From a bacterium (GTDB lineage: Bacteria > Patescibacteriota > Minisyncoccia > UBA6257 > 02-FULL-45-10c): DNA of 64,000 bases. The position numbers were made by a program, and so were the translations under genes. Position 1 is the first letter of the stretch. Each line of letters begins with the position of its first letter. The DNA is taken from contig JAUYKI010000010.1 of the NCBI GenBank assembly GCA_030700025.1, forward strand, positions 16,648-80,647, written 5' to 3'. Below are positions 4,578 to 56,002 of the stretch, piece after piece. Under the pieces are notes generated by a model. It made no database searches and was not told the DNA's origin. It saw only the letters and a list, made by a program, of their open reading frames with translations.

Positions 4578-6488
4578 ATGGGCATGGACGTAGGAAAGCT
4601 CGGCAAAGGACTGGCAATCGCGGAAGAACAGCGGGACAAGCGCCGGCACAACAGTTTCGTCGGCGACTGCTTTCTCGGTATAGCAAATTTTTCGCGGTTC
4701 CTGGAATGCGCGGAAGAAATTCCCGTTGAAGAACAGCGGATCGCGGACGATCTTCTCTATAATTTGAAAGGGTATCTCTGCCGAAATGTGGATCCGGAAA
4801 AAGTGGACGCAACCAATGAATTGCCCGAAGGGGTGATTGAATGGCTTTGCGAAAACGGATATTTCGGACTGAAAATTCCGCGCGAATATGGAGGCATGGG
4901 CTTGCATCAGACTGCTTATTCCCGAGTTTTGGGAGTGGCGGCCAGCTGGTCCGGCGGTTTAGCGGCTCCGCTTTCCGCGGCCAACACTATCGGCCTTAGC
5001 TATCCGATTTTAAATTACGGCGCTGAAGAACAGAAGAAAAAGTGGCTGCCGATTGTTGCCAAAGTCGTAACGGGCTTTGCCTTTACGGAAGACGAAGCTG
5101 GTTCCGATCCGGCAAACATGAAAACTACTGCCACCCGCGTCAAGGGCGGTTATCTCTTAAACGGCACGAAGTGGTGGACCACCAACGGCCCGATGAGCGA
5201 TACCAAATTCTTGTCGCCTCTGTTGTGCGTTATTGCCAAGACCGTTGATTCGCCCGATGAACTGCAGGCCAGAGCCGATGACAAGACTTACAAACCCAGT
5301 TTCAGCGCGCTGATCGTTCCGACTGACGCTCCGGGAATCCGGATTGTCCAGCGGTGCGATTTCGCCGGACTGAAAGGGATTTACAACGGCATTACGGAAT
5401 TCAAGAATGTTTTCGTTCCAGCTGATCAGCTGATCGGCAAGGAAGGACTGGGATTTCGGATCGCCATTGAAGCGCTGAACACCGGCCGGCTTTCAATTGC
5501 CAGCCTGTGCATCGCGGCGGTCAAGCAAGTTTTACTCATCGGAAATTGGTACGGCCGGAAGCGGAAGCAGTGGGCAACCAAGTCCGCTCCTTCCATCGGC
5601 TATCACGAAATGGTCGGCAGCGGATTTCTGGCAAAGGGCGCGGCTAATACTTTAGCGGCGGAAGCGATGGTTTATTTTGCCTCGCTTCGTGTTGACAACG
5701 GATTAGACGCTCGGCTGGAAGCAGCGGTTTGCAAAGTATTCTCTTCCGAACGCGGATGGGAAACCATTGATGACATGATGCAAGTCCGTGGCGGACGCGG
5801 TTATGAAACTGCGGTCTCGCTGGCTAAGCGCGGAGAACCGGCTTTGCCGTTGGAAAGAATTTGGCGCGACTTCCGGATCAACCGGATCTTTGAAGGCGCC
5901 AGTGAAATTCTTATTCTCTGGCTGTTGCGCGAAGGCAGTGATGAGTATAAAAAGCGCGGTGATGTTTTCTTCGGTCCCGGCAATTGGTGGAAAAAGTTCA
6001 CTACTGCCATGGGATTCGCCTGGGATATCCTGAGGCTGCAAAGCCGACAGCAGATTCCCGACGAAGTTTTGGACAGGATTGATCCGCGGCTCCACTCTCA
6101 TCTGTACTTCGTGGAAAAGCACATCCGCAAACTGGCCCTGTCCATGATTTTGATTTCGGCGAAGTATCGCGACAAGCTGATTCATAAACAGCTGATCTTT
6201 AAGAGGCTATTCTGGATCGCCAGCGAACTTTACGCCATGAGCGCGATTTGTTTCTATACTTCCCCGAAACGGCCCGAAGGATATGTCGTTGCCGATGACC
6301 GCAATCTGGATTTGGCCGACCTCTACTGCAAAGAGGCCCGAGCCAGAATTAAGAGCGCTCTTCAGTCGTTGAATCACAATACAGATTCGGAAGCCCGCGC
6401 GGTAGCCAAGCGGCTGCTCGCCGGCGAAGATGACGAATGGCTCAAGAGAGACATTGTCCCGATCGTTGATCATCTTGGATTAAAGTAA
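4578..6488 (+). CDS. acyl-CoA dehydrogenase family protein (long, 636 aa)
   Basis: ACAD core motifs (FAFTEDEAGSDPANMKTTA, GTKWWTTNGPMSD); C-terminal extension; higher GC than neighbours. Confidence 0.8.
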   Translation: MGMDVGKLGKGLAIAEEQRDKRRHNSFVGDCFLGIANFSRFLECAEEIPVEEQRIADDLLYNLKGYLCRNVDPEKVDATNELPEGVIEWLCENGYFGLKIPREYGGMGLHQTAYSRVLGVAASWSGGLAAPLSAANTIGLSYPILNYGAEEQKKKWLPIVAKVVTGFAFTEDEAGSDPANMKTTATRVKGGYLLNGTKWWTTNGPMSDTKFLSPLLCVIAKTVDSPDELQARADDKTYKPSFSALIVPTDAPGIRIVQRCDFAGLKGIYNGITEFKNVFVPADQLIGKEGLGFRIAIEALNTGRLSIASLCIAAVKQVLLIGNWYGRKRKQWATKSAPSIGYHEMVGSGFLAKGAANTLAAEAMVYFASLRVDNGLDARLEAAVCKVFSSERGWETIDDMMQVRGGRGYETAVSLAKRGEPALPLERIWRDFRINRIFEGASEILILWLLREGSDEYKKRGDVFFGPGNWWKKFTTAMGFAWDILRLQSRQQIPDEVLDRIDPRLHSHLYFVEKHIRKLALSMILISAKYRDKLIHKQLIFKRLFWIASELYAMSAICFYTSPKRPEGYVVADDRNLDLADLYCKEARARIKSALQSLNHNTDSEARAVAKRLLAGEDDEWLKRDIVPIVDHLGLK

Positions 6489-6492
6489 AAAA

Positions 6493-6516
6493 ATACCCCG
6501 CTAGCGGGGTTTTTAA
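6493..6516. terminator. bidirectional terminator between the ACAD gene and aceA
   Basis: ACCCCG-CTAG-CGGGGT hairpin with A/T runs on both sides. Confidence 0.6.
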
Positions 6517-7779
6517 TTATTTAAATTGATCTTTTTCAGTTGAGCCGTCCATTGCGGAAGTGGAGGTCTCACCGCCAGAGGCCGTCTGCGCTACTTCATC
6601 AAAGTAACCGGTACCGACCAATTCCTGGTGCTTCACTCCGGGATAGCCGTCTTTCTCTTTGGCGAATTCTTCCGTCTGAAGGTCCACGTACGCCGGCATT
6701 CCGCGTTTCGCGAAATCCTGCGCCAGCTTAAAAGTCGCCAGCATCAGCGCGTGGACTCCCGCCAATGTTACAAACTGGAACTTATAGCCCAGCTTGCCCA
6801 GTTCATCCTGGAAATTCGCCACTGCTTCTTGAGGCAGTTTCGTCCAGTTAAACGACGGAGACAGGTTATAGGCCAAAAGTTTTCCAGGAAATTCCTTGTG
6901 AATCGCTTCTGCAAATTGCCTCGCTTCCGCCAAATCCGGATTAGAGGTTTCATACCAAAGCAAATCCGCGTAAGGCGCGTAAGCCAAAGAGCGCGCAATC
7001 GCGCAATCCATGCCGCCGCGCATCCGGTAAAAACCTTCGGGCGTTCTTTCGCCGGTCAAAAACGGCTTATCGCGGTCATCAATATCGTTGTTCACCAGAT
7101 AAGCGCCGTGCGCGTCAGTCCTGGCAATGATAACCGTGGGAACTCCCAGAACATCCGCCGCCTCCCGCGCCGAACTCAAGGTCCAGATAAACTGGCTAGT
7201 GGAAACTAGAACTTTTCCGCCCAAATGGCCGCACTTTTTTTCCGAACCCAGCTGGTCTTCAAAATGCACTGCCGACGCGCCGGCTCTAATCATCTTCTTC
7301 ATCAATTCAAAAGTATGATCTTTACCCCCGCCAGATTCACCATCAGCCACAATCGGCGCAAACCAATCCCGCTGTTCCCGATTCTTCAAACGCTGTTTCT
7401 CATCTTCCCGCTTAAAAGCGTTGTTAATCCGCTGAACAACATCCGGAACGCTGCGCACCGAATACAAACTCATATCCGGGTAAGTTTCCAAATCGCTGTT
7501 AGCATCAGCCGCGACTTGCCAACCGCTCATGTAAATCGCTTTTTGGCCGGCCGCCACCATGGCCACTGCCATTAATCCGGTATAAGCGCCCAGCGCCTTG
7601 ATGTAAGGTTCGGTATTCAGCATGTGCCAGAATTTTTCCGCGCCTAATCGCGCCAGAGTATGTTCCACCAAAACCGTTCCGCGCAAACGCAAAACCTGTT
7701 CCGGCGCATAATTCCTCTGAACGCCGTTCCATCTCCCGCCGAAAGCCCATTCGTCCCGCAAACGCCCCGCTTCGTTCAT
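6517..7779 (-). CDS. aceA: isocitrate lyase
   Basis: 420 aa; KKCGHLGGKVLV active-site signature; full-length colinearity with AceA. Confidence 0.9.
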   Translation of the reverse strand: MNEAGRLRDEWAFGGRWNGVQRNYAPEQVLRLRGTVLVEHTLARLGAEKFWHMLNTEPYIKALGAYTGLMAVAMVAAGQKAIYMSGWQVAADANSDLETYPDMSLYSVRSVPDVVQRINNAFKREDEKQRLKNREQRDWFAPIVADGESGGGKDHTFELMKKMIRAGASAVHFEDQLGSEKKCGHLGGKVLVSTSQFIWTLSSAREAADVLGVPTVIIARTDAHGAYLVNNDIDDRDKPFLTGERTPEGFYRMRGGMDCAIARSLAYAPYADLLWYETSNPDLAEARQFAEAIHKEFPGKLLAYNLSPSFNWTKLPQEAVANFQDELGKLGYKFQFVTLAGVHALMLATFKLAQDFAKRGMPAYVDLQTEEFAKEKDGYPGVKHQELVGTGYFDEVAQTASGGETSTSAMDGSTEKDQFK

Positions 7780-7896
7780 GTCTGTCCTCCTGCCTAGAGT
7801 TTCGAAGTGCTGGGGAGAATTATAACAATAAAAATTATTCTCGTCAATAGCTTTTAAAAAATAAAAATCCCCCGACCAAAGTCAGGGGTATTTTTT

Positions 7897-9516
7897 TTAA
7901 TTATGCTTCAAATGCTCGTAAGCGGGAAGAGTCAAAAATTCAGTGAAATCTTTGCTGAAAATAATGCGCGCGAACAATTCAGTCGCTAAATCCAGCTTGC
8001 TGGCGGCGTATTTTTCCGCGCCCATTTCTTCCTGAATCTTATCAAATTCTCCACGAATCATCATAGCAACAAATTCTCCGGTAACTGTCTGGCCGTCAGC
8101 CAAAACCGCTTTATGATTCAACCACTGCCAAACTTGCGACCGGGAAATTTCTGCCGTAGCGGCATCTTCCATCAAATTGTAAAGCGGAACACAGCCAATG
8201 CCTCGCAACCAAGCCTCCAAATACTGGATGCCAACGCTGATGTTGGTGCGCAAGCCCGCTTCGGTAATTTCGCCTGAATGCGGCCTCAATAAATCAAATT
8301 CCGTAACCACTACATCTTCCCGCATAACTTCCAGCTGGTTCGGCTTATCGCCTAGAACCTCGTCAAAGGGCTGGCGCGCAATCGCGACCGTGCCCGGATG
8401 AGGAACCCAAGTGCCGTCATGGCCCGCTTCCACTTCTCTCCGCTTATCCGCCAAGATTTTTTCCGTAACCTTTTTATTGGCTTCTGGATCCTTCAAGGGA
8501 ATCTGAGCCGCCATTCCGCCCATGGCATGAGCGCCGCGCTTGTGGCAAACCTGAATCAATTTAACGCAATACGCTTTCAGGAAATCTCTGTCCATCGTCA
8601 CTTGCGCCCGGTCCGGAAGAATAAACCCCGGATGTTTCCGGAATTTCTTGATGTAGCTGAAAATATAATCCCAACGCCCGCAATTCAAACCCGCGGAATG
8701 ATTCTTCAAAGCGTAAAGAATTTCTTCCATTTCAAACGCCGCTAAAATCGTTTCAATCAAAACCGTTGCCCGGATTGTTCCCTGCGGAACACCCAATCTT
8801 CTCTGGGCAAAAACAAAGACATCATTCCAAAGCCTGGCTTCTTCGTAATTTTCCAGCTTCGGCAAATAGAAATAGGGTCCGCTTCCGCGCTCCATTAATT
8901 CTTTGGCGTTATGGAAAAAATATATTCCAAAATCAAACAGCGATGCGGACATCGGCCGGCCGTTTACCAAAATATTTTTTTCCAATAAATGCCAACCCCG
9001 AGGCCGGAACATCAGCGTGGCGATTTTGTCATTCAACTTATATTCCTTGCCAGTTTTCTCGTCCTTGAAATCAATTTGCCGGCGGACTAAGTCGTACATA
9101 TTCAATTGCCCCTGCAAAACATTGGACAAGGTCGGGCAATCGGAATCTTCCGCGTCCGCCATATAGCAATCGGCGCCGCTATTTTCCGCGTTAACCACCA
9201 TGCTCCGTTTGCTAGCCGGACCGGTAATTTCCACTTTCCGGCAGACTAAATCAGCGGGAATAGGCGCTACCCGCCAGAACTCGTCATATCGAATACTCAC
9301 GGTATCTTCACGAAAATGAGGCATTTTGCCAGCGTCAAAGCGTACTTGCTTATGCGTCCGTTCCGTTAAAAATTGTTCGCGATACATACCAAAGATACCT
9401 TGCAACTCCGCCACGAAAGCCAACGCCTCCGGACTTAAAATATGTTCAAATCTTTTCGGTTTTCCGTTGACCACTTCCCAGGTTATCATTGATTCTCTTC
9501 TCCCTTGCCCGTCCAT
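7897..9516 (-). CDS. aceB: malate synthase A
   Basis: 539 aa; LIETILAAFEMEEILYAL...HSAGLNCGRWDYIFS region typical of malate synthase A; directly upstream of aceA. Confidence 0.85.
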   Translation of the reverse strand: MDGQGRRESMITWEVVNGKPKRFEHILSPEALAFVAELQGIFGMYREQFLTERTHKQVRFDAGKMPHFREDTVSIRYDEFWRVAPIPADLVCRKVEITGPASKRSMVVNAENSGADCYMADAEDSDCPTLSNVLQGQLNMYDLVRRQIDFKDEKTGKEYKLNDKIATLMFRPRGWHLLEKNILVNGRPMSASLFDFGIYFFHNAKELMERGSGPYFYLPKLENYEEARLWNDVFVFAQRRLGVPQGTIRATVLIETILAAFEMEEILYALKNHSAGLNCGRWDYIFSYIKKFRKHPGFILPDRAQVTMDRDFLKAYCVKLIQVCHKRGAHAMGGMAAQIPLKDPEANKKVTEKILADKRREVEAGHDGTWVPHPGTVAIARQPFDEVLGDKPNQLEVMREDVVVTEFDLLRPHSGEITEAGLRTNISVGIQYLEAWLRGIGCVPLYNLMEDAATAEISRSQVWQWLNHKAVLADGQTVTGEFVAMMIRGEFDKIQEEMGAEKYAASKLDLATELFARIIFSKDFTEFLTLPAYEHLKHN

Positions 9517-14794: not shown

Positions 14795-16768
14795 TTACAA
14801 AAACGGAACAATTAAAAGCGCAACGATGTTGATTACCTTAATCAGCGGATTAATTGCCGGACCGGCAGTGTCCTTATACGGATCGCCGACAGTGTCGCCG
14901 GTAACCGCGGCTTTATGGGCGTCTGATCCCTTTCCGCCGAAATTTCCGTCTTCAATATATTTTTTGGCATTATCCCAGGCAGCTCCGCCGGCAGTCATGG
15001 AGAGCGCGATAAATAATCCGCCGACAATGGTGCCGATCAAAAATCCTCCCAATGCCTTAGGTCCCAATAACAAACCCACCGCCAATACCGAAATAATCGG
15101 AATTAAAGCCGGCACAATCATTTCTTTTAAAGCTGCCTTAGTGACAATATCCACTGCCCGGCCGTAATCCGGCTTGGCTTTATATTCCATAATTCCAGGA
15201 ATTTCCCTGAATTGCCGACGAACTTCCTCCACTACCGCGCCCGCCGCCTTTCCTACCGCCTTAATAGATATAGAAGCGAACCAGTAAGGAACCGCTGCTC
15301 CCAAAATCAAACCAACCAAAACTAATGGATTTTGAAGCTCAAAGGCCACGTCCTTGCTTAACTTGGTCAATTCATCCACATAACTGGAAAATAAAACTAA
15401 AGCGGCTAAACCCGCGGAAGCAATCGCGTATCCTTTAGTAACCGCTTTCGTGGTATTGCCGACTGCGTCCAAAGAATCGGTAATTTTCCGGACTTCTTCC
15501 GGAGCATTAGTCATTTCCGCGATACCGCCGGCGTTATCCGTAATCGGGCCGAAAGAATCAATGGCCACCACCATTCCCGCGACTGAAAGCATTGCGGTTG
15601 CCGCCATGGCCACGCCATAAATCCCCGCTAAATAAAAACTGCCTAAAATTGCTCCAACAATTATCAAAGCCGGAACTAAAGTAGATTCCATGCCAACCGA
15701 AATTCCCATAATAATATTAGTGCCGTGTCCGGAGCGCGATGCTTCCGCGATGGATTTCACCGGCCGGAAAGATTTGGAAGTATAATAATCAGTTATCAAA
15801 ACCATCAGAACCGTGGTAACCAATCCAACTAACGCGCTCAAATAAATGCTCCAGGTATTATCCGGAAAATAATATTTAGTCGCCGGATAAAACAACACGG
15901 CCGAAAGTCCCAAAGAAACCGCCAATCCTTTATAAAGCGCGCCCATGATATTTTTACCGGAACCGATTTTTACAAACCAGCTTCCGATTAACGAAGAAAT
16001 AATCGCCAAACCGCCTAAAATTAAAGGAAAAATTACTTGCGGGCTCTGCAAACTGCCGGACTGTAAATATCCCAAAAGCATCGTGGCGGTTAAAGTTACC
16101 GCGTAAGTTTCAAAAAGGTCCGCGGCCATGCCCGCGCAATCTCCGACATTGTCTCCGACATTATCGGCAATCACTCCGGGATTTCTCGGATCGTCTTCCG
16201 GAATGCCGGCTTCCACCTTGCCGACTAAATCCGTTCCGACGTCGGCAGCTTTAGTAAAAATTCCGCCTCCCAGCCGGGCGAAAATAGAAATCAAACTGGC
16301 GCCAAATCCCAAACCAATTAAACCGCGCACGTCTTGCGTCAAAATATAAAATCCGGCCACCGATAAAAGTCCCAAAGAAACTACCAAAAAGCCGGTAACC
16401 GCGCCGGATTTAAACGCCAGCGATAAAGCGGCGTTCAAGCCGGACTTGGCTGCCTCCGCGGTTTTGGAATTAGCGCGCACCGCCACATTCATGCCGATAT
16501 AACCGGCAACCGCCGAAGCAATAGCGCCGACTAAAAATCCGACTGCCGATAAAACTCCCAGCCAATAATAAATCGCCAAAGCCAAAACAACGGCAACTAC
16601 GGCAACAGTTTTATACTGCCGATTCAAATATGCCTGTGATCCGGCTTGAATGGCTTTAGAAATTTCCACCATTTTTTCATTGCCGCTAGATTGGCCCTTG
16701 AGCCAAATCATGACGTAAAAACTATAAATAATTGATAAGAAAACTGGTCCGAAAATTAAATAATTCAT
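14795..16768 (-). CDS. hppA: membrane-bound proton-translocating pyrophosphatase
   Basis: 657 aa; [18 protein letters not shown] and [14 protein letters not shown]-PPase signatures. Confidence 0.9.
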
Positions 16769-16810: not shown

Positions 16811-18055
16811 TCATTCTTCGGATTTTTCTTTATCTTCCGAAGCTTCTTTGGCTTCCTTTTCTATTGCTGCCGCGACTCCGCCTTCCTGAACTTCTTCCGG
16901 ACGAGCCTGCGAACGGACATCAATTTTCCAACCGGTTAATTTAGCGGCTAAACGGACATTCTGCCCGCCCCGGCCGATTGCCAAACTCAATTGGTCTTCC
17001 GGAATAAAAACTTTAGCGTCCCGGCGCGGAGAAATTTCCACGGATTTTACTTTTGCCGGAGATAAAGAATTGGAAATAAATTTTTCCGCATCGTCCGACC
17101 ATTCAATAATATCAATTTTTTCCTGTCCCAGCTCATTACTGACGGACATTACCCGCGTGCCTCTTTGGCCGACGCAAGATCCAACCGGATCCACTCCGTC
17201 CGCGGTAGAAGCTACCGCGATTTTTGTCCGGCTTCCCGGCTCTCTGGCAATACCTTTAATTTCTACGATTCCTTCGGCAATTTCCGGAACTTCCAATTCA
17301 AAAAGCTTGCTGACGAATTTCGGATGCGACCGGGAAAGAATAATGCCCGGCACTTTGCTGTCTTCCTGAACCGCCACGATATAAAACCGCATCCGGTCTC
17401 CGGATTTATAATGTTCGCCGGGGATGGATTCGTTATAAAACATAACGCCGGTGGCTCTTCCTAAGTCAACAAAAACATTTCCGCGGTCAAACCGCTGGAT
17501 TACGCCGCTGATAATTTCTCCTTCCTTGCTTTGAAATTCATGGATTACCGAAATCCGTTCCGCTTCCCGCAATTTCTGTAAAACTACCTGTTTGGCAGTT
17601 TGCGCGGCAATCCGGCCGAAGTCATCGTGAGTTTCCAAAGGAAATTCCAATTCTTCTTCTAAAGCAACGCCTTTCTTAATTTTCTTAGCTTCTTCCAGAA
17701 AAAGATGGCGATCCGGATTATAACGGGGCAATTTGCCTTCTTCGTCTTCAAAAGATTCCGGCGCTTCCCGTTCTACACGCTTGGAAACTGCTCCAACTTC
17801 TTCCACCGGCACTTCTTCCGTCTCTTCTACTATTCTTACTGTAGATTCATCCACCACGGTCTTTACCTGCCAAAACTTAAGGCTGCCGGTTTTTAAATCA
17901 AACTTGCATTTAATAATTTCTCCTTTTTTGCCGTATTCCTTTTTATAAGCAGCGGCAATAGACGATTCAATCGCCTCTAAAATCTGATTGGGCTCAATGC
18001 CTTTTTCTTCGGCAATCTGCTCAATCGCTTTTTTTAATGTTTTTAAATCAAACAT
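16811..18055 (-). CDS. nusA: transcription termination/antitermination factor NusA
   Basis: 414 aa; N-terminal domain, S1 domain and two KH domains in NusA order. Confidence 0.9.
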   Translation of the reverse strand: MFDLKTLKKAIEQIAEEKGIEPNQILEAIESSIAAAYKKEYGKKGEIIKCKFDLKTGSLKFWQVKTVVDESTVRIVEETEEVPVEEVGAVSKRVEREAPESFEDEEGKLPRYNPDRHLFLEEAKKIKKGVALEEELEFPLETHDDFGRIAAQTAKQVVLQKLREAERISVIHEFQSKEGEIISGVIQRFDRGNVFVDLGRATGVMFYNESIPGEHYKSGDRMRFYIVAVQEDSKVPGIILSRSHPKFVSKLFELEVPEIAEGIVEIKGIAREPGSRTKIAVASTADGVDPVGSCVGQRGTRVMSVSNELGQEKIDIIEWSDDAEKFISNSLSPAKVKSVEISPRRDAKVFIPEDQLSLAIGRGGQNVRLAAKLTGWKIDVRSQARPEEVQEGGVAAAIEKEAKEASEDKEKSEE

Positions 18056-18107
18056 ACGCTATAAATTAATAAAATGTCCGCTCGACAGCGGACTTCAATC
18101 TGTTTCC

Positions 18108-18135
18108 AGTATATAGGATAAGTAAGGGCTTGTCA
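18108..18135 (-). promoter_or_regulatory. sigma70-like promoter of nusA directly abutting element A
   Basis: minus strand TTGACA - 16 nt - TATACT; element A ends 1 nt before the -35 box. Confidence 0.45.
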
Positions 18136-18136
18136 A

Positions 18137-18415
18137 TGGTCTCGGTTATATCTCTTTACGGAAACAGAATAACTGCTTCGCCGAATCTCTTTCCTCAACC
18201 TCTCATTCGGAAAACCTTATTCTCCCGCTACCGTTCGTCCTCCCAGCGTGAGGACTCACTGGCTCGTCGGCCTCGCTCTGTCCCGCTTCGCGGGACAACC
18301 ATGCCCGCTCGGCCTCCGGCCGCGCTACGGAGAATAAGGATTTCCTCATTTTTATTATTTTATTAACCGAGCTAATCGGTTCGCTTGGGTTTCGGTAAAG
18401 AGATATCGGCCTTCG
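18137..18415 (-). repeat. mosaic GC-rich structured element A (candidate ncRNA)
   Basis: 19-bp long-range helix joins the ends (18140-18165 with 18392-18415); internal CCTTATTCTCC/GGAGAATAAGG helix; UUCG-capped hairpin GTCCCGC-TTCG-GCGGGAC; related to 25398-25592 and 40655-40800. Confidence 0.5.
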
Positions 18416-18542
18416 CTTTAAAATAGTTTGTATATAATTGCGGGATGTTCCCTTAAAGGGGTATAACCTCGACTTTGGATTTTAAAACGTGGGGCTAATC
18501 CCCATAAAAAAATTCCCCTCGATTTTCATCGAGGGGGGTAGT

Positions 18543-18680
18543 TCACCCACAGGAACGGGGGCCGGTCATGGTCAGGACAAAGGGCAGGGCAATGAGCAGA
18601 AGGATCATCGCGCCCATCACGCCCACCATCACCCAGGCGACTTTCTGGCTCACCTTCTTCTTGTTCAGATACCTCAGCAT
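18543..18680 (-). CDS. small hydrophobic protein (45 aa, 1 TM)
   Basis: ATG preceded by AAGGAGG on the minus strand; immediately downstream of the 69-aa membrane ORF. Confidence 0.35.
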   Translation of the reverse strand: MLRYLNKKKVSQKVAWVMVGVMGAMILLLIALPFVLTMTGPRSCG

Positions 18681-18699
18681 GTGCAGCCTCCTTGTTAGC

Positions 18700-18909
18700 T
18701 TACTTTGGGCCCGAGACTGATGAGCTCGGACATTTCTTGAGGTCGTGTGACACAAGACCGACCAAAAGACCGATCAGATATCCGAGGAAAGAACAGATGC
18801 CCATTGCCGCAAACGATTCATTAGGAGTTATCGGAAATCTGAACACGTAGGGCAAAAACATGGCAACTATCAATCCGATACCGTACTTAAGCATGGTAAT
18901 CCTCCTCAC
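18700..18909 (-). CDS. small membrane protein (69 aa, 2 TM)
   Basis: GAGGAGG RBS upstream; two hydrophobic helices. Confidence 0.4.
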   Translation of the reverse strand: MRRITMLKYGIGLIVAMFLPYVFRFPITPNESFAAMGICSFLGYLIGLLVGLVSHDLKKCPSSSVSGPK

Positions 18910-19020
18910 ACTTTTAAGTTACTATATCTAGTATAGCATACTATATCAGTCTTGTCAATAGCACCTTAGGCCCGCCCCCTAAAACCCATCCCTTCTCCCC
19001 ACAAAATATAAAACCCCCGT

Positions 19021-19380
19021 TTAGTTGGGGGCTGGGGATTTCGTAACCAGGTTGGTAATATAAAACTTCAAAATCTCTTTTTGCTGGTCGCTCAATTTAG
19101 CCCAAAGCGTATCCTCCAGGAACAAAACTTCTTCTTCCGACAGGTCGTCAAACAGAAAATGCAGGGCCTCATGAAGCAGAACCTTAGCCAAGGCGTCTGG
19201 GCTTTGATTACGCGAGGTGCTTAAATAGATTTCGTCATCTTTTAATAATCCACAAAGATCCACTCCGTCGTCCTGGACCCTCTCTTGAAGATGAATCTCG
19301 TCTATATCCTCGTTTAGGGCTTCAATAACTTTTTTAAAGAACCAGTCGACTAACTTGTCCCCAGTCGCTATGTTTTTCAA
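19021..19380 (-). CDS. small HExxH-motif protein (119 aa), putative minimal metallopeptidase-like
   Basis: LLHEALHFLF (HExxH) motif; terminator hairpin CCCCCAACTAAACGGGGG overlaps the stop. Confidence 0.4.
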   Translation of the reverse strand: MKNIATGDKLVDWFFKKVIEALNEDIDEIHLQERVQDDGVDLCGLLKDDEIYLSTSRNQSPDALAKVLLHEALHFLFDDLSEEEVLFLEDTLWAKLSDQQKEILKFYITNLVTKSPAPN

Positions 19381-19463
19381 TTTATCCTCCCGAATCCCAA
19401 TCTTTAACTAAAGATTGCAACAAAACCCCCAAAAAGACAATATGCAGACTTCTATAATTAAAA

Positions 19464-19844
19464 CTAAAGATTTTCAAAATACTTAATTAACGGCTCTTTG
19501 CCGTTAATTAAAGTAATAGCGATTAAATCTATGCGCCATCCCCTTTCGTCGTTTACGAGATTGGGATTCTGGTTAGCATACAAAATGGCGGTTCTTTGTA
19601 ATTTTTGTAATTTGGCGGCAGTAAGATTGTCTTCCGGATTTAATTCGGCAATTGCCGGATTGCCGGATTCTTTCATGGTTTTTACTTCAACAATGACTAA
19701 TGTCTTGTCTGGCGCCATAGCAATGACGTCCAACTCGCCCCATGGCTTTCTAAAATTCCGTTCAATAACCGTGAAACAATGTTTCACAAGGTATTCACAA
19801 GCAAGATCTTCTCCAAATTTTCCAACTTCGGATTTATGCGTCAT
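19464..19844 (-). CDS. yraN: YraN-family (UPF0102) endonuclease
   Basis: GEDLACEYL...GELDVIAM..VIVEVKT motifs typical of YraN. Confidence 0.75.
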   Translation of the reverse strand: MTHKSEVGKFGEDLACEYLVKHCFTVIERNFRKPWGELDVIAMAPDKTLVIVEVKTMKESGNPAIAELNPEDNLTAAKLQKLQRTAILYANQNPNLVNDERGWRIDLIAITLINGKEPLIKYFENL

Positions 19845-19868
19845 TGACCAAATGTTAAACAAAAACAC

Positions 19869-20509
19869 AGTGTTTTACAAATAAAATTGTTTCACGTGTT
19901 ACAAAATTATCTAAATAGGCTCAAATCTTTACAGATGTTTCACATTTAGTGTGAAACATTGGTAATGAAATAAGCCTAAAGTATCAAAATTGTTTCGCGT
20001 GAAACTTTTTCACTCAGCCGAACCACCTCTCCTCAACCCGCTTCGCTCGTCCAGCGACTCGCTCGCTTGTACTCGCCGCCTTGCCGTTCAAGGAGTTTAC
20101 GCCCCATAACGAACGGACCCTGCCAAGGCGGCTGCGTGGGTATCGGATAAGTGGTGTCGGCATCGCCCTGTGATTAAAAATTAGGATCGCTTATCAAATC
20201 AAAAGTTTCACGTATTACAAAATTACCCAAATAGGCTCAAGTCTAGCACCAATGTTTCACGCTTTTAGTGTGAAACATTATTTTAGTACCCAAAATAAGG
20301 CAATTTGGCCTAATCCGGCAAGACGAATGTTTCACAAAAGTGTTTCACGCCGACACACCTCCTTCTATCTATATCAACCGATAACACCCTTTCCAACGAA
20401 GAAGAGAGGGTTTTTCTATATTGACATTTAATCCTAAATATGATATCATCATATTTAGTTCAGATTTAGTTCAGACTTGATAGTTAAATAACTGCTAGGA
20501 GGAACTGCA
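19869..20509. promoter_or_regulatory. dense regulatory intergenic region with TGTTTCAC palindromes
   Basis: about 12 TGTTTCAC/GTGAAACA sites; two ~110-bp direct repeats (19889-19960, 20205-20281) flank a GC-rich hairpin-rich core (20030-20170); promoter TTGACA-17-TATCAT overlapped by an 11-bp perfect palindrome (20434-20458); tandem ATTTAGTTCAG x2. Confidence 0.55.
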
Positions 20510-20950
20510 ATGGACAAGGCGATTCTGTACGCGTTGGTTGCGGCAATCTGCTACGGCCTGGGAAGTCCGCTTTTCAAAATGGCGTCCAACAACGGCGCTT
20601 CCGGATCTGGTGTTTCGCTGATGTACGGAATCGCGGCAACGCTTCTCTGCTACTTCGGCGGACAAACCACATTCTTCGGAACCGGCAAGGGTTTTGCTTT
20701 TGCCGGCATGACCGGACTGGCTTTCGGCGTCGCGCTCTTTGCAATCAGTAAGGCAGTGGCAATGCCAACGGGCTATGTTTCGCTCATCGGAGTAATCGTG
20801 GCTGCGTATCCGCTGATCAGTACGGCGATCGGATTGATCTTTCTCGGCGAAGCCGACAAGTTCAAGCTCACGCCCCTGCTGATCGGTTCCGCGTTAGTAG
20901 TGGCCGGCCTCGCGCTTATCACCATGAGCGCCAAAGAGGGAAGCCACTAG
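20510..20950 (+). CDS. small 5-TM membrane protein, single EamA/DMT-like domain
   Basis: AGGAGG RBS at 20497; five hydrophobic helices; terminator ACCGTCC..GGACGGTTTTTT downstream. Confidence 0.5.
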   Translation: MDKAILYALVAAICYGLGSPLFKMASNNGASGSGVSLMYGIAATLLCYFGGQTTFFGTGKGFAFAGMTGLAFGVALFAISKAVAMPTGYVSLIGVIVAAYPLISTAIGLIFLGEADKFKLTPLLIGSALVVAGLALITMSAKEGSH

Positions 20951-21092: not shown

Positions 21093-21770
21093 TTATTTGA
21101 TTTGCAGAGTTTTTACAAATAATTTTTGCCAACCTAAAATCTTTCTTAAATGATTTATTCCACCGACATATAATCTTAAACACCCCTTATAATCAGGTAT
21201 TTTTTTAAAATTATATGGGGTAAATTTATACACCGTTGACTGAAATTGATTTAAACTAATTTTTAACCCTTGAGACCAATATTTTTCTAATTTTTCATCG
21301 GCGTATGGTTTGTGTATGTATAATCTGAATTTCATCTTTTCCCTGGGTATATCCAAAAACTTATTAAACCAATTAATCATTATTTTAATAATCATTGGGT
21401 CGGAATTTATTATTTCCGTGTTACCCCCTCTTTTACTTCCTTCGGCCCAGTACAAAGATAGCCCGATTATAAACAAAGGATTAGTAATAAATCCGGCCAA
21501 ACTCGAAGAAGCTTCTTTAAAAATTGCTTTTGTTCTTTGAATGCGTTTTTTTCTATTGGATATAGCGGCTTTAAATCTCGCTTTATCCATTTTTGAATTT
21601 ATTCGTTTTTCTAAATTATTTAATTGGCCCGGCGTAAGGCTAATATATTTTAACCACCCGGATAGCGTGCCCTTAGAAAGGTTTGGTATGCGACTCCTTA
21701 TTTCATTATATGACCGGCCGCTCTTTCTTAATTTTATAGCCAATTGTTTTTCAATAATTCTTTCTTTCAT
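21093..21770 (-). CDS. AT-rich HTH-domain protein with LAGLIDADG-like motif (possible homing-endonuclease-like gene)
   Basis: N-terminal HTH (RKSGRSYNEIRSRI); FIIGLSLYWAEGSK resembles LAGLIDADG/AEGS motif; about 30% GC versus about 46% background; adjacent to tRNA-Arg. Confidence 0.35.
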   Translation of the reverse strand: MKERIIEKQLAIKLRKSGRSYNEIRSRIPNLSKGTLSGWLKYISLTPGQLNNLEKRINSKMDKARFKAAISNRKKRIQRTKAIFKEASSSLAGFITNPLFIIGLSLYWAEGSKRGGNTEIINSDPMIIKIMINWFNKFLDIPREKMKFRLYIHKPYADEKLEKYWSQGLKISLNQFQSTVYKFTPYNFKKIPDYKGCLRLYVGGINHLRKILGWQKLFVKTLQIK

Positions 21771-34274: not shown

Positions 34275-34404
34275 CCCTCACCCTTGAAGGGCCTAACGCG
34301 TTTCCGCGTTTTTGTTTCAAGATTAATTTAAGATTAAGCTCAATCGACATTTTAAATAATAAACTAATTATGGGCAATCTCACAGCCCTTCCAAGGTGAG
34401 GGAT
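34273..34404. repeat. family B paired inverted repeat F2
   Basis: ATCCCTCACCCTTG...CAAGGTGAGGGAT flank 105 bp of AT-rich sequence; abuts the xerC stop. Confidence 0.6.
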
Positions 34405-35300
34405 TAATTTCGTCTACGGCCGTGAAATGCCCTATGGACTTCCCGCAATTCTTTATTAGTTAAATGAGTGTAAACCTGGGTGGTGGCAATATTGCTGTGG
34501 CCAAGCATTTCCTGCACCGCCCGCAAATCCGCGCCGTTTACCAGCAAATCCGTGGCAAACTGGTGGCGGAGCTGATGCGGAGTAATTTTTTTGGTAATGC
34601 CCGCTTTCCGCCGGTAAAACTCCACCAGGCGCTGAACCGAGCGCGGAGTAATTTTTCCGATAATTTTCGGATTTGGCCCCTTTGATAAACTAACGAACAT
34701 GACTCCTTCGGCATCACCGCGTTTCGCCAGATAATTTTTCAAAGCGGTTCGGGCGCGATCCGAAATAAACACTATCCGCAATTTTTCGCCCTTGCCCCGG
34801 ACCGTAATTTCTCCGCGGTCCAAATTAAGATAACGGTCTAATTTGCAAAGCTCCGAAAGCCGGAGTCCGGTAGAAAATAAAGTTTCTAAAATCGCTTTGT
34901 CCCGCAAGCCCCGCAAATTATCTGTTTTGGGAGAATTTAAAAATCTTTCCAAATCCGCGTATTCCACAATTTCAATCTGCCGGCGGGGAATTTTCGGAAG
35001 TTCAATTTTATCCGGCGACAAAACTTCGTAATCTTTTTTAATCAGATATTTTAAAAAGTTCCGGATAGCAATTACGTAAAAAGACTGGGTAATTCTTTTT
35101 AACGGCTTGCCGCGCGCCAACTGAAGGCGGAATTGAATGACTTTTTCCGCGGTAATTTCTTCCGGCTTTTTAACTTTTGCGAAAGCTAAAAACGCCTTTA
35201 AATAACGCTCATAATTTTCCCGGGTTTTAATAGAGCGGTTTTTTTCCACTTCTAAATAATCCAGATAGTTTTGCAAAGCATCTTGAACGCTAGCCATGCC
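34404..35300 (-). CDS. xerC: tyrosine recombinase XerC/XerD family
   Basis: C-terminal R..HxxR..Y catalytic region (RHQFATDLL...LGHSNIATTQVYTHL); ORF extends to 35393 but MASVQD is the likely start. Confidence 0.85.
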   Translation of the reverse strand, partial: GMASVQDALQNYLDYLEVEKNRSIKTRENYERYLKAFLAFAKVKKPEEITAEKVIQFRLQLARGKPLKRITQSFYVIAIRNFLKYLIKKDYEVLSPDKIELPKIPRRQIEIVEYADLERFLNSPKTDNLRGLRDKAILETLFSTGLRLSELCKLDRYLNLDRGEITVRGKGEKLRIVFISDRARTALKNYLAKRGDAEGVMFVSLSKGPNPKIIGKITPRSVQRLVEFYRRKAGITKKITPHQLRHQFATDLLVNGADLRAVQEMLGHSNIATTQVYTHLTNKELREVHRAFHGRRRN

Positions 35301-35341
35301 TTTATTATAACCTGTCGCACAATATTTTTTAACCACGCAAA

Positions 35342-35478
35342 ATCCCTCACTTTTGAAGCACCGAAACGTCCAGGCGATTTCCTTAGAGGACACTAATCAT
35401 TTACAAGTAGGGTCTGGAGTTAGAAAACAACGTAGTAAGACAAACGCTTAAAAATCGCAGCGCTTCAAGAGTGAGGGA
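35342..35478. repeat. family B paired inverted repeat F3
   Basis: ATCCCTCACTTTTGAAGC...GCTTCAAGAGTGAGGGA, 17-bp arms. Confidence 0.6.
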
Positions 35479-40654: not shown

Positions 40655-40800
40655 CTCAGCCGTACCACATCTCCTCTACCGCTCAAACTCCCGGCGAGAA
40701 TTTTCACTGGGTCTCGGGCTTCGCTCTTTCTACCTATTGGCGGAAAGCCCTGCCCGCTCAGCCTTCAGCCCGTGCTACGGAGAATAAGGCTTTCTCGCTT
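40655..40800 (-). repeat. mosaic GC-rich element C (partial homolog of element A interior)
   Basis: TGCCCGCTCAGCCTTCAGCCCGTGCTACGGAGAATAAGGCTTTC parallels 18296-18345; lacks the terminal helix and promoter. Confidence 0.45.
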
Positions 40801-40984: not shown

Positions 40985-41146
40985 AAAAATAGAGGATTGG
41001 AAACCCTCTTATAAGTACCTCTGGCAGTAAACCTGCCCTTACTTCAGCGTAGGGATTCCCTAAAAAGTTTCCATACGCCAAAAGCGTATTCCCGTAAAAA
41101 GGAGGTACGCCCTACGTTGAAGCAAGTGCAGGTTTTTTGTTTGAAA
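40985..41146 (+). ncRNA. candidate structured small RNA with intrinsic terminator
   Basis: 24-bp interrupted closing helix (41031-41054 with 41110-41133) followed by TTTTTT; internal ATACGC-CAAAA-GCGTAT hairpin; exposed AAGGAGG; no adjacent ORF. Confidence 0.35.
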
Positions 41147-42227: not shown

Positions 42228-43805
42228 CTAACTATTCTCCCGCAAACGATACTGGAACGCCTCGGCTAAATGCCCGGCGGTTATATTTTTGGCTTCTTCC
42301 AGGTCCGCGATAGTCTGGGCGGTTTTTAAAACGCGGTAATAACTGCGCGCGGATAAAAGCGATTTTTCAAACATATCTTTTACAAAATTATCCGCTTCTT
42401 TATCCAATTTAATAATTTCATCACAGGCCTTAGAACTCATTTCCGAATTGGTGAAAAACGGCAGGCCTAGTTTTTTAAAACGTTCCCGCTGAGCTTCTCT
42501 GGCTTGAATAATTTTTTTCCGCATTACATCCGCTGATTTCACGTCCCGGTTTTTATTCTGCAATTCTTCCACTTTTACCCGCGGGACATTAATCTGTAAA
42601 TCAATCCGGTCCAACAACGGCCCGGAAATTTTCTTTTGATAGCGGAACACCTCAAACGCCGAACAACGGCATTCTTTTTCCGGATCGCCGTAATAACCGC
42701 ACGGGCAGGGGTTCATAGCCGCTACCAGCATAAATTGCGCTGGAAAAGTTAAGTGTCCCTTAGCGCGCGAAACTAAAACTTTTCCGCTTTCAATCGGCTG
42801 GCGAAGCGCTTCCAGCAAATCCCGCCGAAATTCCGGCAATTCGTCCAGAAATAAAACTCCACGATGCGCCAAGCTGATTTCTCCCGGACGGGGATTTTGC
42901 CCGCCGCCGATTATCGCCGGAAGCGACGCGGTTTGGTGCGGCGCCCGGAACGGACGCCAATTAATAAAATAATTTTTCTCCAGCATTCCGGCGGCGCTGT
43001 ACACCTTGGTAATTTCCAAAATTTCTTCTTCGCCGGGCGCCGGTAAAATGGAATTCAGCGCTTGCGCCAGCATGGATTTTCCCGCTCCCGGACTGCCCTG
43101 CATTAAAAGATTATGCCCGCCGGCCGCGGCAATCATTAAAGCCCGCTTGGCATTTTCCTGGCCTTTAATATCCGCGATATCCACCATAGAATGCTCGGAA
43201 GATAATGACGGCTGGATTGGAGTTCTTGGCTGGTGGGCGATTACATTCCGATTTTCCAAATGGTTGATAATTTCTAAAAGATTATTAACCGGAATAACTT
43301 TTACTTTATCCGCCATCGCCGCTTCCACCGCGTTTTCTTTGGGAACAAATAATTCGGCAAAGCCCTCCTCTTTTGCCATCTGGGAAATATTTAAAACTCC
43401 GCTTACCGGACGAAGCGCTCCGTCCAGCGCCAGTTCGCCGATAAAAAGTTTAGTGGCGCTTTCAAAATCTTTAATTTGCTTGGTCGCCAAAAGATAACCG
43501 ACGGCGATTGCTAAATCGTAATGCGATCCGGTTTTTTTCAAATCTGCCGGCGCGAGATTAACCACGATTTTCCGATTTTCTTTAGATGGCGGTTTTACAC
43601 CGCTATTTTTTAAAGCCGAGCTGACCCGCTCTTTGGCTTCCGAAAGCGATTTATCCGCCAATCCGACAATATTAAAACTATGGAGACCGACATTTATGTC
43701 GGTCTCCACTTCAATTAAATTCGCTTCAATTCCGTCAATTGAAGCCGAGAAGACCTTAGATAGGTTCATTCCTAATATATTAGAGGCAAAAGAATTAAAA
43801 ATCAA
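42228..43805 (-). CDS. comM: Mg-chelatase-like AAA ATPase ComM/YifB family
   Basis: N-terminal Lon-like domain, AAA core (GSPGAGKSMLA), C-terminal ChlI-like region. Confidence 0.85.
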   Translation of the reverse strand: MIFNSFASNILGMNLSKVFSASIDGIEANLIEVETDINVGLHSFNIVGLADKSLSEAKERVSSALKNSGVKPPSKENRKIVVNLAPADLKKTGSHYDLAIAVGYLLATKQIKDFESATKLFIGELALDGALRPVSGVLNISQMAKEEGFAELFVPKENAVEAAMADKVKVIPVNNLLEIINHLENRNVIAHQPRTPIQPSLSSEHSMVDIADIKGQENAKRALMIAAAGGHNLLMQGSPGAGKSMLAQALNSILPAPGEEEILEITKVYSAAGMLEKNYFINWRPFRAPHQTASLPAIIGGGQNPRPGEISLAHRGVLFLDELPEFRRDLLEALRQPIESGKVLVSRAKGHLTFPAQFMLVAAMNPCPCGYYGDPEKECRCSAFEVFRYQKKISGPLLDRIDLQINVPRVKVEELQNKNRDVKSADVMRKKIIQAREAQRERFKKLGLPFFTNSEMSSKACDEIIKLDKEADNFVKDMFEKSLLSARSYYRVLKTAQTIADLEEAKNITAGHLAEAFQYRLRENS

Positions 43806-50973: not shown

Positions 50974-51888
50974 ATGTTCCGTATTTTTCTCTCAACTGCA
51001 ATTATCAGCCTGGGGCTTGCCGGCGGTTTTTACTTTGTTACCAGCTATCATTTGCCAACTGCTCCCCAAAGCCAACCAACTGCTTTAACGCTTAACAACA
51101 ATCCTGTTTCCAACCAGCCATTAGTGGAACAGTTAATGCCCCCATCTTTAGAAAATTATTTGGCTGGCGGCTTGCTGGCAGAATCTTCTTGGACCGAAGG
51201 CGGCTTAGCCAGCGAAATTTCAGGGGACCTGGCCCAATTCTTAATTGAAAATAATCCGGAAGAGCCCGACGTTTCCGGCGGTAAACAATTTATCCAAGTT
51301 CCAACGGAGCAAGATGTCTTAAACAGTATCTTAGCTAAAAGTTCTGACAAATTAAATGATTTGCGGCCAATCATCAGCGATGCCGATTTAAATATTTCCG
51401 CTTCCGTTGCCAATGAAGATCTGAAAAATTACAGCAGCCGCGTAAAAAATCTTTTGGCCGGGTACCGCTCTGGATTAACTACTGCTTTCAACCAGCAACA
51501 GGCCGATATCGCCAAGCTTTACCAAGCCGATAGCGGCCAATTTTTAAATAATCTGGCCAGTCCCGAGAGCTCGATAAACAACCCCGAGGTTCAAAAACAA
51601 TATCTCGGCCTGATGTTTTTAAACTATAAATATTTTTCCAATTTAATACTACTTTTGAGCGGTTTAGAGGGTAAATTATATGCCGTTTCTGTTCCTCGGC
51701 CGGCAATAGAACTTCATAAAAATCTGCTTTCTTTAGTAATTGCCAGAAAAAATATCCTAACCGAAATCCAAACTCCGAAAACCAGGGATCCATTAACCAC
51801 GCTTTTGAACCAGCAAATGCTGCAAACTATTGATTCGGAATTTGCCCATTGGATGGAAGTTTTGCCTAATCTAAGCGCAGAATCTTAA
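50974..51888 (+). CDS. hypothetical membrane-anchored protein
   Basis: N-terminal TM/signal anchor; no motif. Confidence 0.45.
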   Translation: MFRIFLSTAIISLGLAGGFYFVTSYHLPTAPQSQPTALTLNNNPVSNQPLVEQLMPPSLENYLAGGLLAESSWTEGGLASEISGDLAQFLIENNPEEPDVSGGKQFIQVPTEQDVLNSILAKSSDKLNDLRPIISDADLNISASVANEDLKNYSSRVKNLLAGYRSGLTTAFNQQQADIAKLYQADSGQFLNNLASPESSINNPEVQKQYLGLMFLNYKYFSNLILLLSGLEGKLYAVSVPRPAIELHKNLLSLVIARKNILTEIQTPKTRDPLTTLLNQQMLQTIDSEFAHWMEVLPNLSAES

Positions 51889-51891
51889 ACT

Positions 51892-53067
51892 ATGGCGACT
51901 AAACTTAGTTCAAAAATTATTATAACGGTGTTAATCTTAGCCATTATTTTGACGCCTTTTAATCGGGGTTTGCAACTGCAAAAAACTAATGCCAGCTGGC
52001 TCTCGGAAGCCATTGATGCGTTGGATCCCACCAATGTAGAAATAAATTTTGATGCCGAAAAGTTTAAACAAGATTGTTATGCCGCTGGGGTTCCCCACGA
52101 CCAATGCGATCAGGCAGCGGCAGACCAGCAAGCGGCAGTGGACGAAGCTAACGCAGAAGACGATGGAGGGTTTTTAGATTTTCTAGATGCGCTTAGCATT
52201 GGTGAAGTAACCGTCGCCGCCTTAGGCGTATTTTATCTAGCCGTTTGTCTGCCCACCACCCAAGTCCCAGTAGCTACCGGCGTCGGAGCTGCGGGTATTG
52301 CTACCGCAGCCGGCACTGGCCTTGGCCCCGGTCCCGCGGCAGCCGTTCCTTTTATCACCAGCGTTTGCGATTCCATTAAAAAAGCGCTAAATCAAGCCTT
52401 TAAACAGCAAATTCTCCAAGCCCTAGTCAACGATATTACCGCTTGGATTAAAAGAGGATACAAAGGAAAAGTTATTGTTACCGATTGGAGGGAATTGGTA
52501 TCCAATGCCGGCCAAGCCGCGGTCGGTGAATTCGCCCAATCCATCGGCGCGGGATTTTTATGTTCACCATTTAATTTCCAAATCCAATTTTTGTTAACCG
52601 AGCATCCAGATTTTGATACTAAAGCAAGGTGCACTTTAGACGATATTGTCGGCAACATTGATAATTTTTATACCGATTTCCGGCAGGGCGGCTGGATTGC
52701 TTACCAGACATCCTGGGCTCCGCAGAATAATTTTTACGGCGCCACCTTGCTGGCTATCCGCGAAGCCAACCGAGTGCATGATGAAGCCGCCGATGCCGCC
52801 AAAAATGAAGGCATCGCCAACCAAGGATTCCTTTCTCAAAAAAATTGCGTAACTGTCGCGCTTCCCGGCGGCGGAACCAAAGAGCAATGCACCACAACCA
52901 ACCCCGGCAGTCTCATTGGCAATGCCGCCGCCGAAGTTTTGGTGAAAACCCCGATTGGAGCGGTTATTGGCGCGGATGAATTGGGCGGATACTTAAAAGT
53001 TATTATTGATACCGCCCTTAATGAACTAATTAAAAAGCAGGTTGATGACGTGAAACAAGGATTTTAG
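51892..53067 (+). CDS. hypothetical membrane-anchored Cys-containing protein
   Basis: N-terminal TM; Gly/Ala-rich linker; 4-nt spacing to the previous gene suggests an operon. Confidence 0.45.
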   Translation: MATKLSSKIIITVLILAIILTPFNRGLQLQKTNASWLSEAIDALDPTNVEINFDAEKFKQDCYAAGVPHDQCDQAAADQQAAVDEANAEDDGGFLDFLDALSIGEVTVAALGVFYLAVCLPTTQVPVATGVGAAGIATAAGTGLGPGPAAAVPFITSVCDSIKKALNQAFKQQILQALVNDITAWIKRGYKGKVIVTDWRELVSNAGQAAVGEFAQSIGAGFLCSPFNFQIQFLLTEHPDFDTKARCTLDDIVGNIDNFYTDFRQGGWIAYQTSWAPQNNFYGATLLAIREANRVHDEAADAAKNEGIANQGFLSQKNCVTVALPGGGTKEQCTTTNPGSLIGNAAAEVLVKTPIGAVIGADELGGYLKVIIDTALNELIKKQVDDVKQGF

Positions 53068-53073
53068 AAAATT

Positions 53074-54954: not shown

Positions 54955-54969
54955 ATAAATTAATAAACT

Positions 54970-55875: not shown

Positions 55876-56002
55876 AATAATAATGAGATACTAATATACC
55901 AATGCATGCGAATAATACTAATAAAATACGAATATGTAAAAATTAGTATATTATTCGTATAATTAGTACCATTCGTATATTGGCATCATTTAGTGTAAAC
56001 AT
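55876..56002. repeat. PR-family repeat R5 (rearranged, inverted-arm duplication)
   Basis: contains CCAATGCATGCGAATAATA (reverse complement of the R2 arm) and ATTCGTATATTGGCAT ending 8 nt... before the 56003 ATG (24 nt from TATATT). Confidence 0.6.

Follow-up and report, generated by a model that had tools for sequence, protein, structure and literature searches.

An Array of parS-Type Half-Sites Travels with yraN in Patescibacteria

The window analysed here, by which the whole 64-kb stretch of DNA is meant throughout, carries a dense array of short sites (19771-20350) around the gene yraN. They are part of a conserved and selected array of parS-type half-sites, parS being the site recognised by ParB-type proteins, that travels with yraN and is homologous to canonical parS arrays at the same locus in relatives. 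In our view, the chances are about even that it is a derived, centromere-like array to which a ParB-type protein binds, possibly repressing yraN as well; ParB as the binder, the centromere role, and the repression of yraN are what we infer. The initial annotation had described the region between yraN and a small membrane protein gene as a regulatory hotspot with operator-like sites that tightly control a small exporter, or as the seat of an embedded small RNA (sRNA) gene. The sites themselves are borne out by the comparisons below, but in annotation this 'regulatory hotspot' is not to be credited to the exporter.

Half-Sites of the parS Type

The unit TGTTTCAC occurs in 11 exact copies in the window, nine of which lie within 19771-20348, as compared to an expectation of 1.19 for the whole 64 kb; none of 100 shuffled sequences reached 11. 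Both remaining copies are located within open reading frames (ORFs), and no TGTTTCAC was found in other promoters of the window, including that upstream of comM. The shorter heptamer GTTTCAC is present 15 times in the window (11 of them in 19771-20348), and the same interval holds 15 half-sites when one mismatch is allowed. TGTTTCAC corresponds exactly to one of the halves that make up canonical parS (TGTTNCAC followed by GTGAAACA) and agrees at 8/8 positions with the parS half of the consensus TGTTNCACGTGAAACA, and GTTTCAC is the published half-parS bound by ParB of Pseudomonas aeruginosa (PMC7022226, PMC10419367). The heptamer, as GTTTCAC or GTTCCAC, is present and over-represented near yraN in the window as well as in its relatives. 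Judged by sequence, the TGTTTCAC sites are parS half-sites; the initial annotation had found the motif unlike the LexA, CIRCE, and CRP boxes known to it and had left it unrecognised.

Linkage to yraN in Related Loci

Two related loci from metagenome-assembled genomes of 'Candidatus Saccharibacteria' (L002, L003) were obtained with a YraN query against species-representative genomes, and 80 more (L004-L083) with a three-sequence YraN alignment against metagenome contigs. Closer relatives came from a protein collection and share YraN identities of 85 % (L090), 81 % (L091), 75 % (L085), and 72 % (L092) with the window. Across 75 distinct related Patescibacteria loci, half-sites of the form TGTTT[ACT]AC amount to 2.96 per kb near yraN (from -1000 to +300 of the gene) versus 0.08 per kb in the other 346 kb. 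At least four half-sites are found in 28 of the 64 loci having enough upstream sequence, and the neighbouring genes differ widely among the 75 loci.

Several relatives carry full palindromes at this locus. For example, L002 has two perfect copies of TGTTTCACGTGAAACA, one over the start of yraN and the other just past its stop, and approximately 1 kb of L012 holds seven strict matches to parS (eight when GTTTCACGTGAAAC cores are counted). Two to four strict matches each are present in L008 (three), L075 (four), L073, L078, and L080. In an alignment of L008 with L004 and L020, the perfect parS of L008 correspond to degenerate or half sites at orthologous positions. Relatives have sites upstream of, within, and downstream of yraN, which is more in keeping with a landing pad that tolerates varied positions than with a simple operator. 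One perfect parS of L008 (2484-2499, with the GTTTCACGTGAAAC core) lies in the yraN frame on a 66-nt in-frame insertion.

The comparison of orthologous regions that the initial annotation had proposed was thus carried out, and half-sites are retained there. Its view of the sites as operator-like, that is, of the protein-binding type, agrees with their selection and conservation: in module 1 of the array, compared among four relatives, the half-site columns are 81 % invariant versus 42 % for all others.

Architecture of the Array

The array extends from the 5' coding part of yraN into the intergenic region (19845-20509) that separates yraN from a gene for a small EamA-like membrane protein. Its first element is a divergent half-site pair, GTGAAACA-A-TGTTTCAC (19771-19787), within the coding part; overlooked before, it is also present in L085, L090, L091, and L092, and the array of L012 has similar GTGAAAC-AAAT-GTTTCAC pairs at both its borders. 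It is followed by a divergent pair of variant half-sites with one mismatch, TGTTAAACA-N8-TGTTTTACA (19854-19878), which includes the palindrome AAAACAC-A-GTGTTTT (19862-19876). This block is kept in L085, L090, and L091, and a related element occurs in L002, L003, L022, and L028. It lies over the putative core promoter of yraN on the minus strand, TTGTAA-17-TAACAT, which was read by eye (8/12 positions) and not called by the promoter scan.

The remaining sites are arranged in two modules. Module 1 (19885-20010) was recognised by sequence comparison and folding as being, in its entirety, a 127-nt imperfect palindrome (19884-20010, fold z = -8.3), a feature that had likewise escaped the initial annotation. 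Two degenerate full sites of the module, TGTTTCACGTGTTACA (19888-19903) and TGTTTCGCGTGAAACT (19991-20006), each agree with parS at 14/16 positions. Between them lie a conserved block, AAATAGGCTCAAAT (19913-19926), and a split palindrome formed by ATGTTTCAC (19935-19943) and GTGAAACAT (19951-19959) with seven nt in the gap (19935-19959 in total). Module 2 (20195-20350), a direct repeat of module 1 that is conserved in L085 and L090/L093, contains the site AGTTTCACGTATTACA (20204-20219, 12/16 to parS), the block AAATAGGCTCAAGT (20229-20242), a split palindrome with a nine-nt gap (20252-20278; ATGTTTCAC at 20252-20260 and GTGAAACAT at 20270-20278), and two tandem direct TGTTTCAC half-sites separated by five nt (20328-20335 and 20341-20348). 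Between the two modules, 19878-19960 and 20195-20279 are 82.6 % identical over 86 nt (E = 2e-15), with 90 % in a 40-nt core, and within the 64 kb the modules match only one another. The palindromes, tandem half-sites, direct repeats, GC-rich core, and downstream promoter of the initial annotation are all present, its coordinates being off by about 1 nt.

A Sub-Lineage with Separated Half-Sites

The window belongs to a sub-lineage that further comprises L004, L005, L006, L007, L014, L018, L020, L085, L090, and L091. Its members have no contiguous palindromes at all, yet 5-14 half-sites per locus, and 67 of these sites yield the sub-clade consensus AATGTTTCAC(A/G), i. e., AATGTTTCACR. Measured from start to start, inverted pairs are spaced by 14-17 nt and direct pairs by 12-13 and 48-49 nt, while the spacing of 8 nt expected for parS is never seen in the sub-lineage. 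In L007, seven half-site copies share a single orientation, which argues for protein-DNA binding and against RNA hairpins. The plan of two modules is common to the window, L085, and L090, and consists of a site A, a TAGGCTCAA block, a site B, a gap (7 nt in module 1 and 9 nt in module 2), and a site C, with the tandem sites at the far end. In this sub-lineage, ordered and separated half-sites of the form AATGTTTCACR take the place of palindromes.

Relation to Known Systems

Centromere arrays and binding to half-parS are already known. Chromosomal parS clusters comprise, for example, 10 sites in Corynebacterium glutamicum, 22 in Myxococcus xanthus, and parS1-4 in P. aeruginosa (PMC7022226). The array described here shares with them the identical half-site TGTTTCAC, many sites within at most 1 kb, relatives with perfect TGTTTCACGTGAAACA, and the tolerance of sites in coding sequence. 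Unlike in these clusters, however, the halves are never contiguous in the window but separated by gaps of 5, 7, 9 nt or more, the unit is extended to AATGTTTCACR, neither a parAB operon nor an origin is found nearby, and the array is bound to a single gene, yraN, across the whole lineage. ParB of P. aeruginosa furthermore binds half-parS (GTTCCAC/GTTTCAC), which is believed to keep ParB on the DNA without its spreading (PMC5961200, PMC10419367). The heptamer, the isolation of the half-sites, and their occurrence in either orientation are the same here, but the Pseudomonas half-sites number hundreds and are dispersed genome-wide, whereas about 15 are found here in 580 bp with conserved spacing and without dispersal in the rest of the window.

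Repeated short units also make up plasmid centromere and operator sets such as the omega heptads of pSM19035, sopC of F, and the KorB operator (OB) sites of RK2, in which the units stand in direct or inverted order and one protein both partitions and represses adjacent promoters. The array resembles these sets in its short units with direct and inverted arrangement, but differs in its chromosomal locus, the lack of plasmid or phage similarity, and the absence of adjoining partition genes. A further point of comparison are DnaA-box clusters, as known from oriC, datA, and the DnaA-box clusters (DBCs) of B. subtilis. They are likewise intergenic clusters of asymmetric 9-11-mers in both orientations, but in the present case the motif is a different one, relatives have 16-bp palindromes, and there is neither a skew switch nor dnaA.

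The literature searched contained no link of parS with yraN, nor of ParB/parS with chromosomes of Saccharibacteria or of the candidate phyla radiation (CPR). A lineage-wide, yraN-tied array of parS type in Patescibacteria, and a sub-lineage with ordered half-sites, are not described in it.

Proposed Function and Rival Explanations

In the explanation that we favour, 19771-20350 would be this genome's copy of a lineage-wide binding-site array around yraN for a parS-recognising (ParB-type) protein. Dimers or open dimers of this binder would occupy the approximately 15 half-sites through their helix-turn-helix domains, and the occupied half-sites may give rise to a densely packed protein-DNA landmark, akin to a centromere or 'landing pad', for which half-parS with bound ParB in Pseudomonas offers a comparison. 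Binding would probably also damp the transcription of yraN, because the variant pair at 19854-19878 overlaps its putative core promoter. ParB-family regulators such as KorB provide a precedent for such repression. Another is an influence of ParB on competence genes that is reported for S. pneumoniae (PMC4488948). A more far-reaching version, which we advance tentatively and with distinctly less confidence, is that of an ancient, dedicated, yraN-coupled centromere-like array in Patescibacteria, in which one sub-lineage switched from parS palindromes to ordered separated half-sites. This would imply either a ParB that assembles on half-sites or split sites, or a hitherto unknown protein that now uses what was once a parS array; in the latter case, chromosome organisation would be coupled to the control of transformation.

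Several observations weigh against a ParB-type binder. Canonical parS, taken as a 16-bp palindrome matching TGTTNCACGTGAAACA with no or one mismatch, is present at this locus in relatives but absent from the window, where the best sites reach 14/16 (19888-19903 and 19991-20006) and 12/16 (20204-20219). With 7-9 nt between them, the inverted half-sites cannot be reconciled with the way in which a ParB dimer is known to sit on parS, and the conserved AA flank makes for an 11-bp unit that is not typical of parS. In relatives, position 6, which is conserved in canonical parS, varies, as in TGTTTAAC (L003, L028, L081), TGTTTTAC, and TGTTTGCC. About half of the related loci are without a clear array, and chromosomal parS is not usually tied so strictly to a single gene, a tie that may point to gene-specific regulation. 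Finally, no ParB, ParA, or DnaA was detected by Pfam among the approximately 50 proteins of the window or by tblastn, with Spo0J and Soj of B. subtilis and DnaA of E. coli as queries, in approximately 550 kb of related loci. A Pfam search of L003 was likewise negative for all three.

Among other candidates for the binder, small CxxC proteins occur in a few loci only, and the presence of a LAGLIDADG_1 gene that is frequently found next to yraN does not follow that of the array; the window ORF at 21093-21770 is unrelated to the latter gene. Comparison by eye with Rex, CRP, dif, and Ter sites ruled these out by spacing or orientation. A promoter inside the modules (TTGAGC-17-TAAYAC) was discarded, as it is without the -7 T, inconsistent across relatives, and missed by the scan. 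Tandem interspaced guide RNA (TIGR) arrays are characterised by tandem dual-repeat units of approximately 36 nt and an adjacent tas (Nop-domain) gene (PMC12045711); here, no regular period was found and no tas gene among the neighbours.

The rival that deserves most attention regards the array as operators of a protein other than ParB, either a transcription factor or a nucleoid-associated protein specific to the lineage, which would bind AATGTTTCACR as a monomer or flexible dimer and control yraN, so that the resemblance to parS would be convergent or historical. The strict linkage of array and yraN, the variant half-sites over the putative yraN core promoter, and the conserved bases that reach past the parS half would all be in line with it, as would the failure to find ParB nearby and the direct repeats (seven in one orientation in L007) and variable spacings, which are as for a monomeric binder. 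We nevertheless regard it as a rather doubtful possibility. The 10-20 sites over 0.5-1 kb, including sites within and downstream of the coding sequence, far exceed the needs of an operator, and the exact 16-bp universal parS in several relatives is unlikely to be a coincidence. Moreover, other promoters of the window, comM included, have no copies, and the search for a nearby transcription factor that the initial annotation had recommended yielded no candidate regulator gene conserved beside the array. An unlikely reading is that of non-functional or selfish palindromes, similar to miniature inverted-repeat transposable elements (MITEs) or repetitive extragenic palindromic (REP) elements, together with local duplications in a recombination-prone region downstream of tRNA genes. 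The 127-nt palindrome of module 1, the duplication of the modules, the GC-rich inserts that come and go between them, the decay of full sites in some lineages, and the occurrence of other motifs at the same place elsewhere (e. g., 9-13 copies of AATCCTGCAA in L010 and L022) could be read in this way. However, the motif is restricted to one locus in the window and in the flanks of relatives, the half-sites are far better conserved than the intervening sequence, and their spacing classes are conserved. The modules, matching only each other in 64 kb, do not behave as a MITE or dispersed palindromic repeat, and an origin from plasmids or phages was rejected for want of blastn matches in either (four isolated matches of the split palindrome in viral contigs are unrelated).

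Regulation of the exporter by multiple operators, or an sRNA gene in the GC-rich core, as proposed by the initial annotation, is in our estimation still less probable. In its favour, the exporter gene is preceded by a strong promoter that a perfect palindrome overlaps, the core folds better than shuffled sequences (z = -2.8 and -3.7), and the order of yraN, array, and EamA gene is kept in the closest relative. Tight control of the exporter by the sites is nonetheless not supported: the array is tied to yraN in 75 loci, L085 has both modules with a different neighbour and no EamA gene beside them, no site overlaps the promoter, and the stretch of approximately 70 nt from the last half-site to the -35 box is unconserved; even L090/L093, the closest relative, has sequence there that is unrelated to the window. 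Over the -10 box, the palindrome is degenerate already at 92 % protein identity and lost at 58 %, and the tandem 11-mer next to it is specific to the window. As for the sRNA, unrelated GC-rich sequence replaces the core in L090 and L085, no Rfam match was obtained, and the core partly resembles a dispersed repeat family. The lowest probability is given to a cluster of DnaA boxes, either a replication origin or a DnaA-titrating locus like datA, which is very improbable and already largely refuted. It would account for the genes that diverge at this point, for an origin-like change of raw GC skew and gene orientation at approximately 20 kb, and for both orientations and the variable spacing of the sites; by eye, TGTTTCACA differs from the relaxed box TTWTNCACA at position 2 alone. 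However, no DnaA box (TTATNCACA-type or TTATCCACA-like) with at most one mismatch is present in 19600-20600, neither dnaA nor dnaN was found in the window or in approximately 550 kb of related loci, and the 16-bp palindromes and TGTTTAAC/TGTTTGCC variants of relatives break the invariant CACA. In minus-strand genes, the skew at third codon positions (GC3 skew) amounts to -0.158 to the left and -0.163 to the right, and right-hand plus-strand genes are negative too; the raw skew changes because gene orientation does, the GC3 skew having the same sign on both sides. Most relatives with 12-20 kb of sequence also have the same skew sign on both sides, and the locus was dismissed as oriC.

Should the array be a landing site for ParB, its linkage to yraN would make it an easy marker, and the natural series from perfect parS to split half-sites would offer a test of how ParB loading depends on the 16-bp palindrome. 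It would also suggest a possible link between ParB-type complexes and a gene of natural transformation. Were a protein other than ParB the binder, the array would be the target of an unknown, widely conserved DNA-binding protein. To our knowledge, there is almost no experimental knowledge of chromosome organisation in Patescibacteria/CPR.

The Exporter Promoter and the GC-Rich Insert

The promoter of the EamA-like gene and the GC-rich insert are features independent of the array. The former, TTGACA-17-TATCAT with a TG extension (20421-20449, plus strand), was called by the promoter scan with 11/12 positions, and its -35 box starts 72 nt downstream of the last half-site. A perfect palindrome with 11-bp arms (20434-20458, plus strand) covers the -10 box and is unique in the window. 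It is hence present as described by the initial annotation, but its conservation is partial: part of it (ATGAT followed by ATCAT) is the extended -10 element itself, it has two mismatches in L093, the 92 %-identical orthologue, and it is gone in L094 (58 %), where only TTGACA stays. The tandem ATTTAGTTCAG (two copies, 20453-20474, plus strand) is a window-specific duplication, to which a gap of 12 nt corresponds in the alignment with L093.

The GC-rich insert between the modules (20012-20190) ends in closing inverted repeats and is not conserved in relatives. Its core (20010-20170) has a GC content of 0.56-0.61 as compared to 0.25-0.33 in the flanks. A high GC content is common to the inserts of the window, L090, and L085, the sequences of which are for the most part unrelated, and the core is a variable insert rather than a conserved sRNA. 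With Rfam 15, a search of the whole window at the gathering threshold and of 18000-20600 at E ≤ 10 returned only tRNAs and microRNA-type chance matches (E > 1).

The 5' approximately 45 nt of the insert resemble a family of GC-rich elements of approximately 140 nt, the profile of which does not reach the insert at E < 0.01. In this family, the 5' and 3' ends pair as closing inverted repeats (fold z of about -5.6). Members are found in the window at 18206-18344 and 40666-40794, with a partial relative at 20012-20161, and in related genomes in L070 (1286-1421), L025 (601-736), L019 (3141-3262), and L085 (1827-1964). They are dispersed over varied intergenic positions and without an Rfam match, and may represent either a repeat similar to MITEs or a structured RNA not described so far. 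Downstream of the second element, the intergenic stretch 41000-41140 has strong hairpin potential and a T-run at its end.

yraN and Further Genes of the Window

yraN is encoded on the minus strand (19464-19844, ATG at 19844). Its product of 126 aa, a UPF0102 protein of the PD-(D/E)XK nuclease type (Pfam PF02021, 6e-19), is identical to the NCBI protein P0001; YraN-family matches in NCBIfam reach 81 bits at best, which is under the curated cut-offs, and its named homologues are from Wolfebacteria or a 'Patescibacteria group'. YraN has been described as a D-loop endonuclease that works with the helicase ComM in natural transformation (preprint 10.1101/2024.02.06.579203). A ComM/YifB gene is present in the window at 42228-43805, with no TGTTTCAC nearby. 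On the other side of the array, the plus-strand EamA/DMT-like gene (20510-20950) encodes a small membrane protein of 146 aa with a Pfam EamA match (3.4e-6) slightly short of the curated cut-off and just two homologues in a set of 5.8 billion proteins; it is a neighbour of the array and not a conserved partner.

Within yraN, the segment coding for NPAIAEL (19642-19669) contains a 20-bp palindrome, AATTCGGCAATTGCCGGATT. In L010 (90-230, 886-905) and L022 (5250-5330, 5949-5968), a variant of it, AATCCTGCAATTGCAGGATT, occurs in the gene and in 9-13 repeats upstream, such that the coding palindrome co-varies with repeats just 5' of the gene; L011 and L024 have TCGGCAAT/ATTGCCGA arrays in place of the AATCCTGCAATTGCAGGATT repeats. 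A divergent gene for a single-domain LAGLIDADG_1 protein (approximately 143 aa) is located about 80-100 bp upstream of yraN in approximately 32 of 82 related loci, for example, in L007 (931-1362), L005 (517-936), and L088 (9489-9920), and is missing from the window. Rather than a sporadic homing endonuclease, this gene is a conserved neighbour. The array comes after a tRNA-Lys/tRNA-Val pair in several relatives, and in L003 (9469-9633) and L022 (approximately 5150-5240) a duplicated tRNA-Val 3' end (23 nt) flanks both sides of a GC-rich insert of approximately 120 nt just upstream of the array, which looks like the scar of an integration event.

Elsewhere in the window, genes for acyl-CoA dehydrogenase, isocitrate lyase, malate synthase, and H+-pyrophosphatase (4578-9516 and 14795-16768) are syntenic in L085 and unusual for Patescibacteria, the group to which YraN, the type IV secretion genes, and the relatives point. 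A tyrosine recombinase is encoded at 34404-35393. The type IV secretion-like cluster (50974-62447), a typical CPR feature, includes PrgI, a TraG/VirB4-type ATPase, and a type IV secretion system pilin next to several ORFs without a Pfam match.

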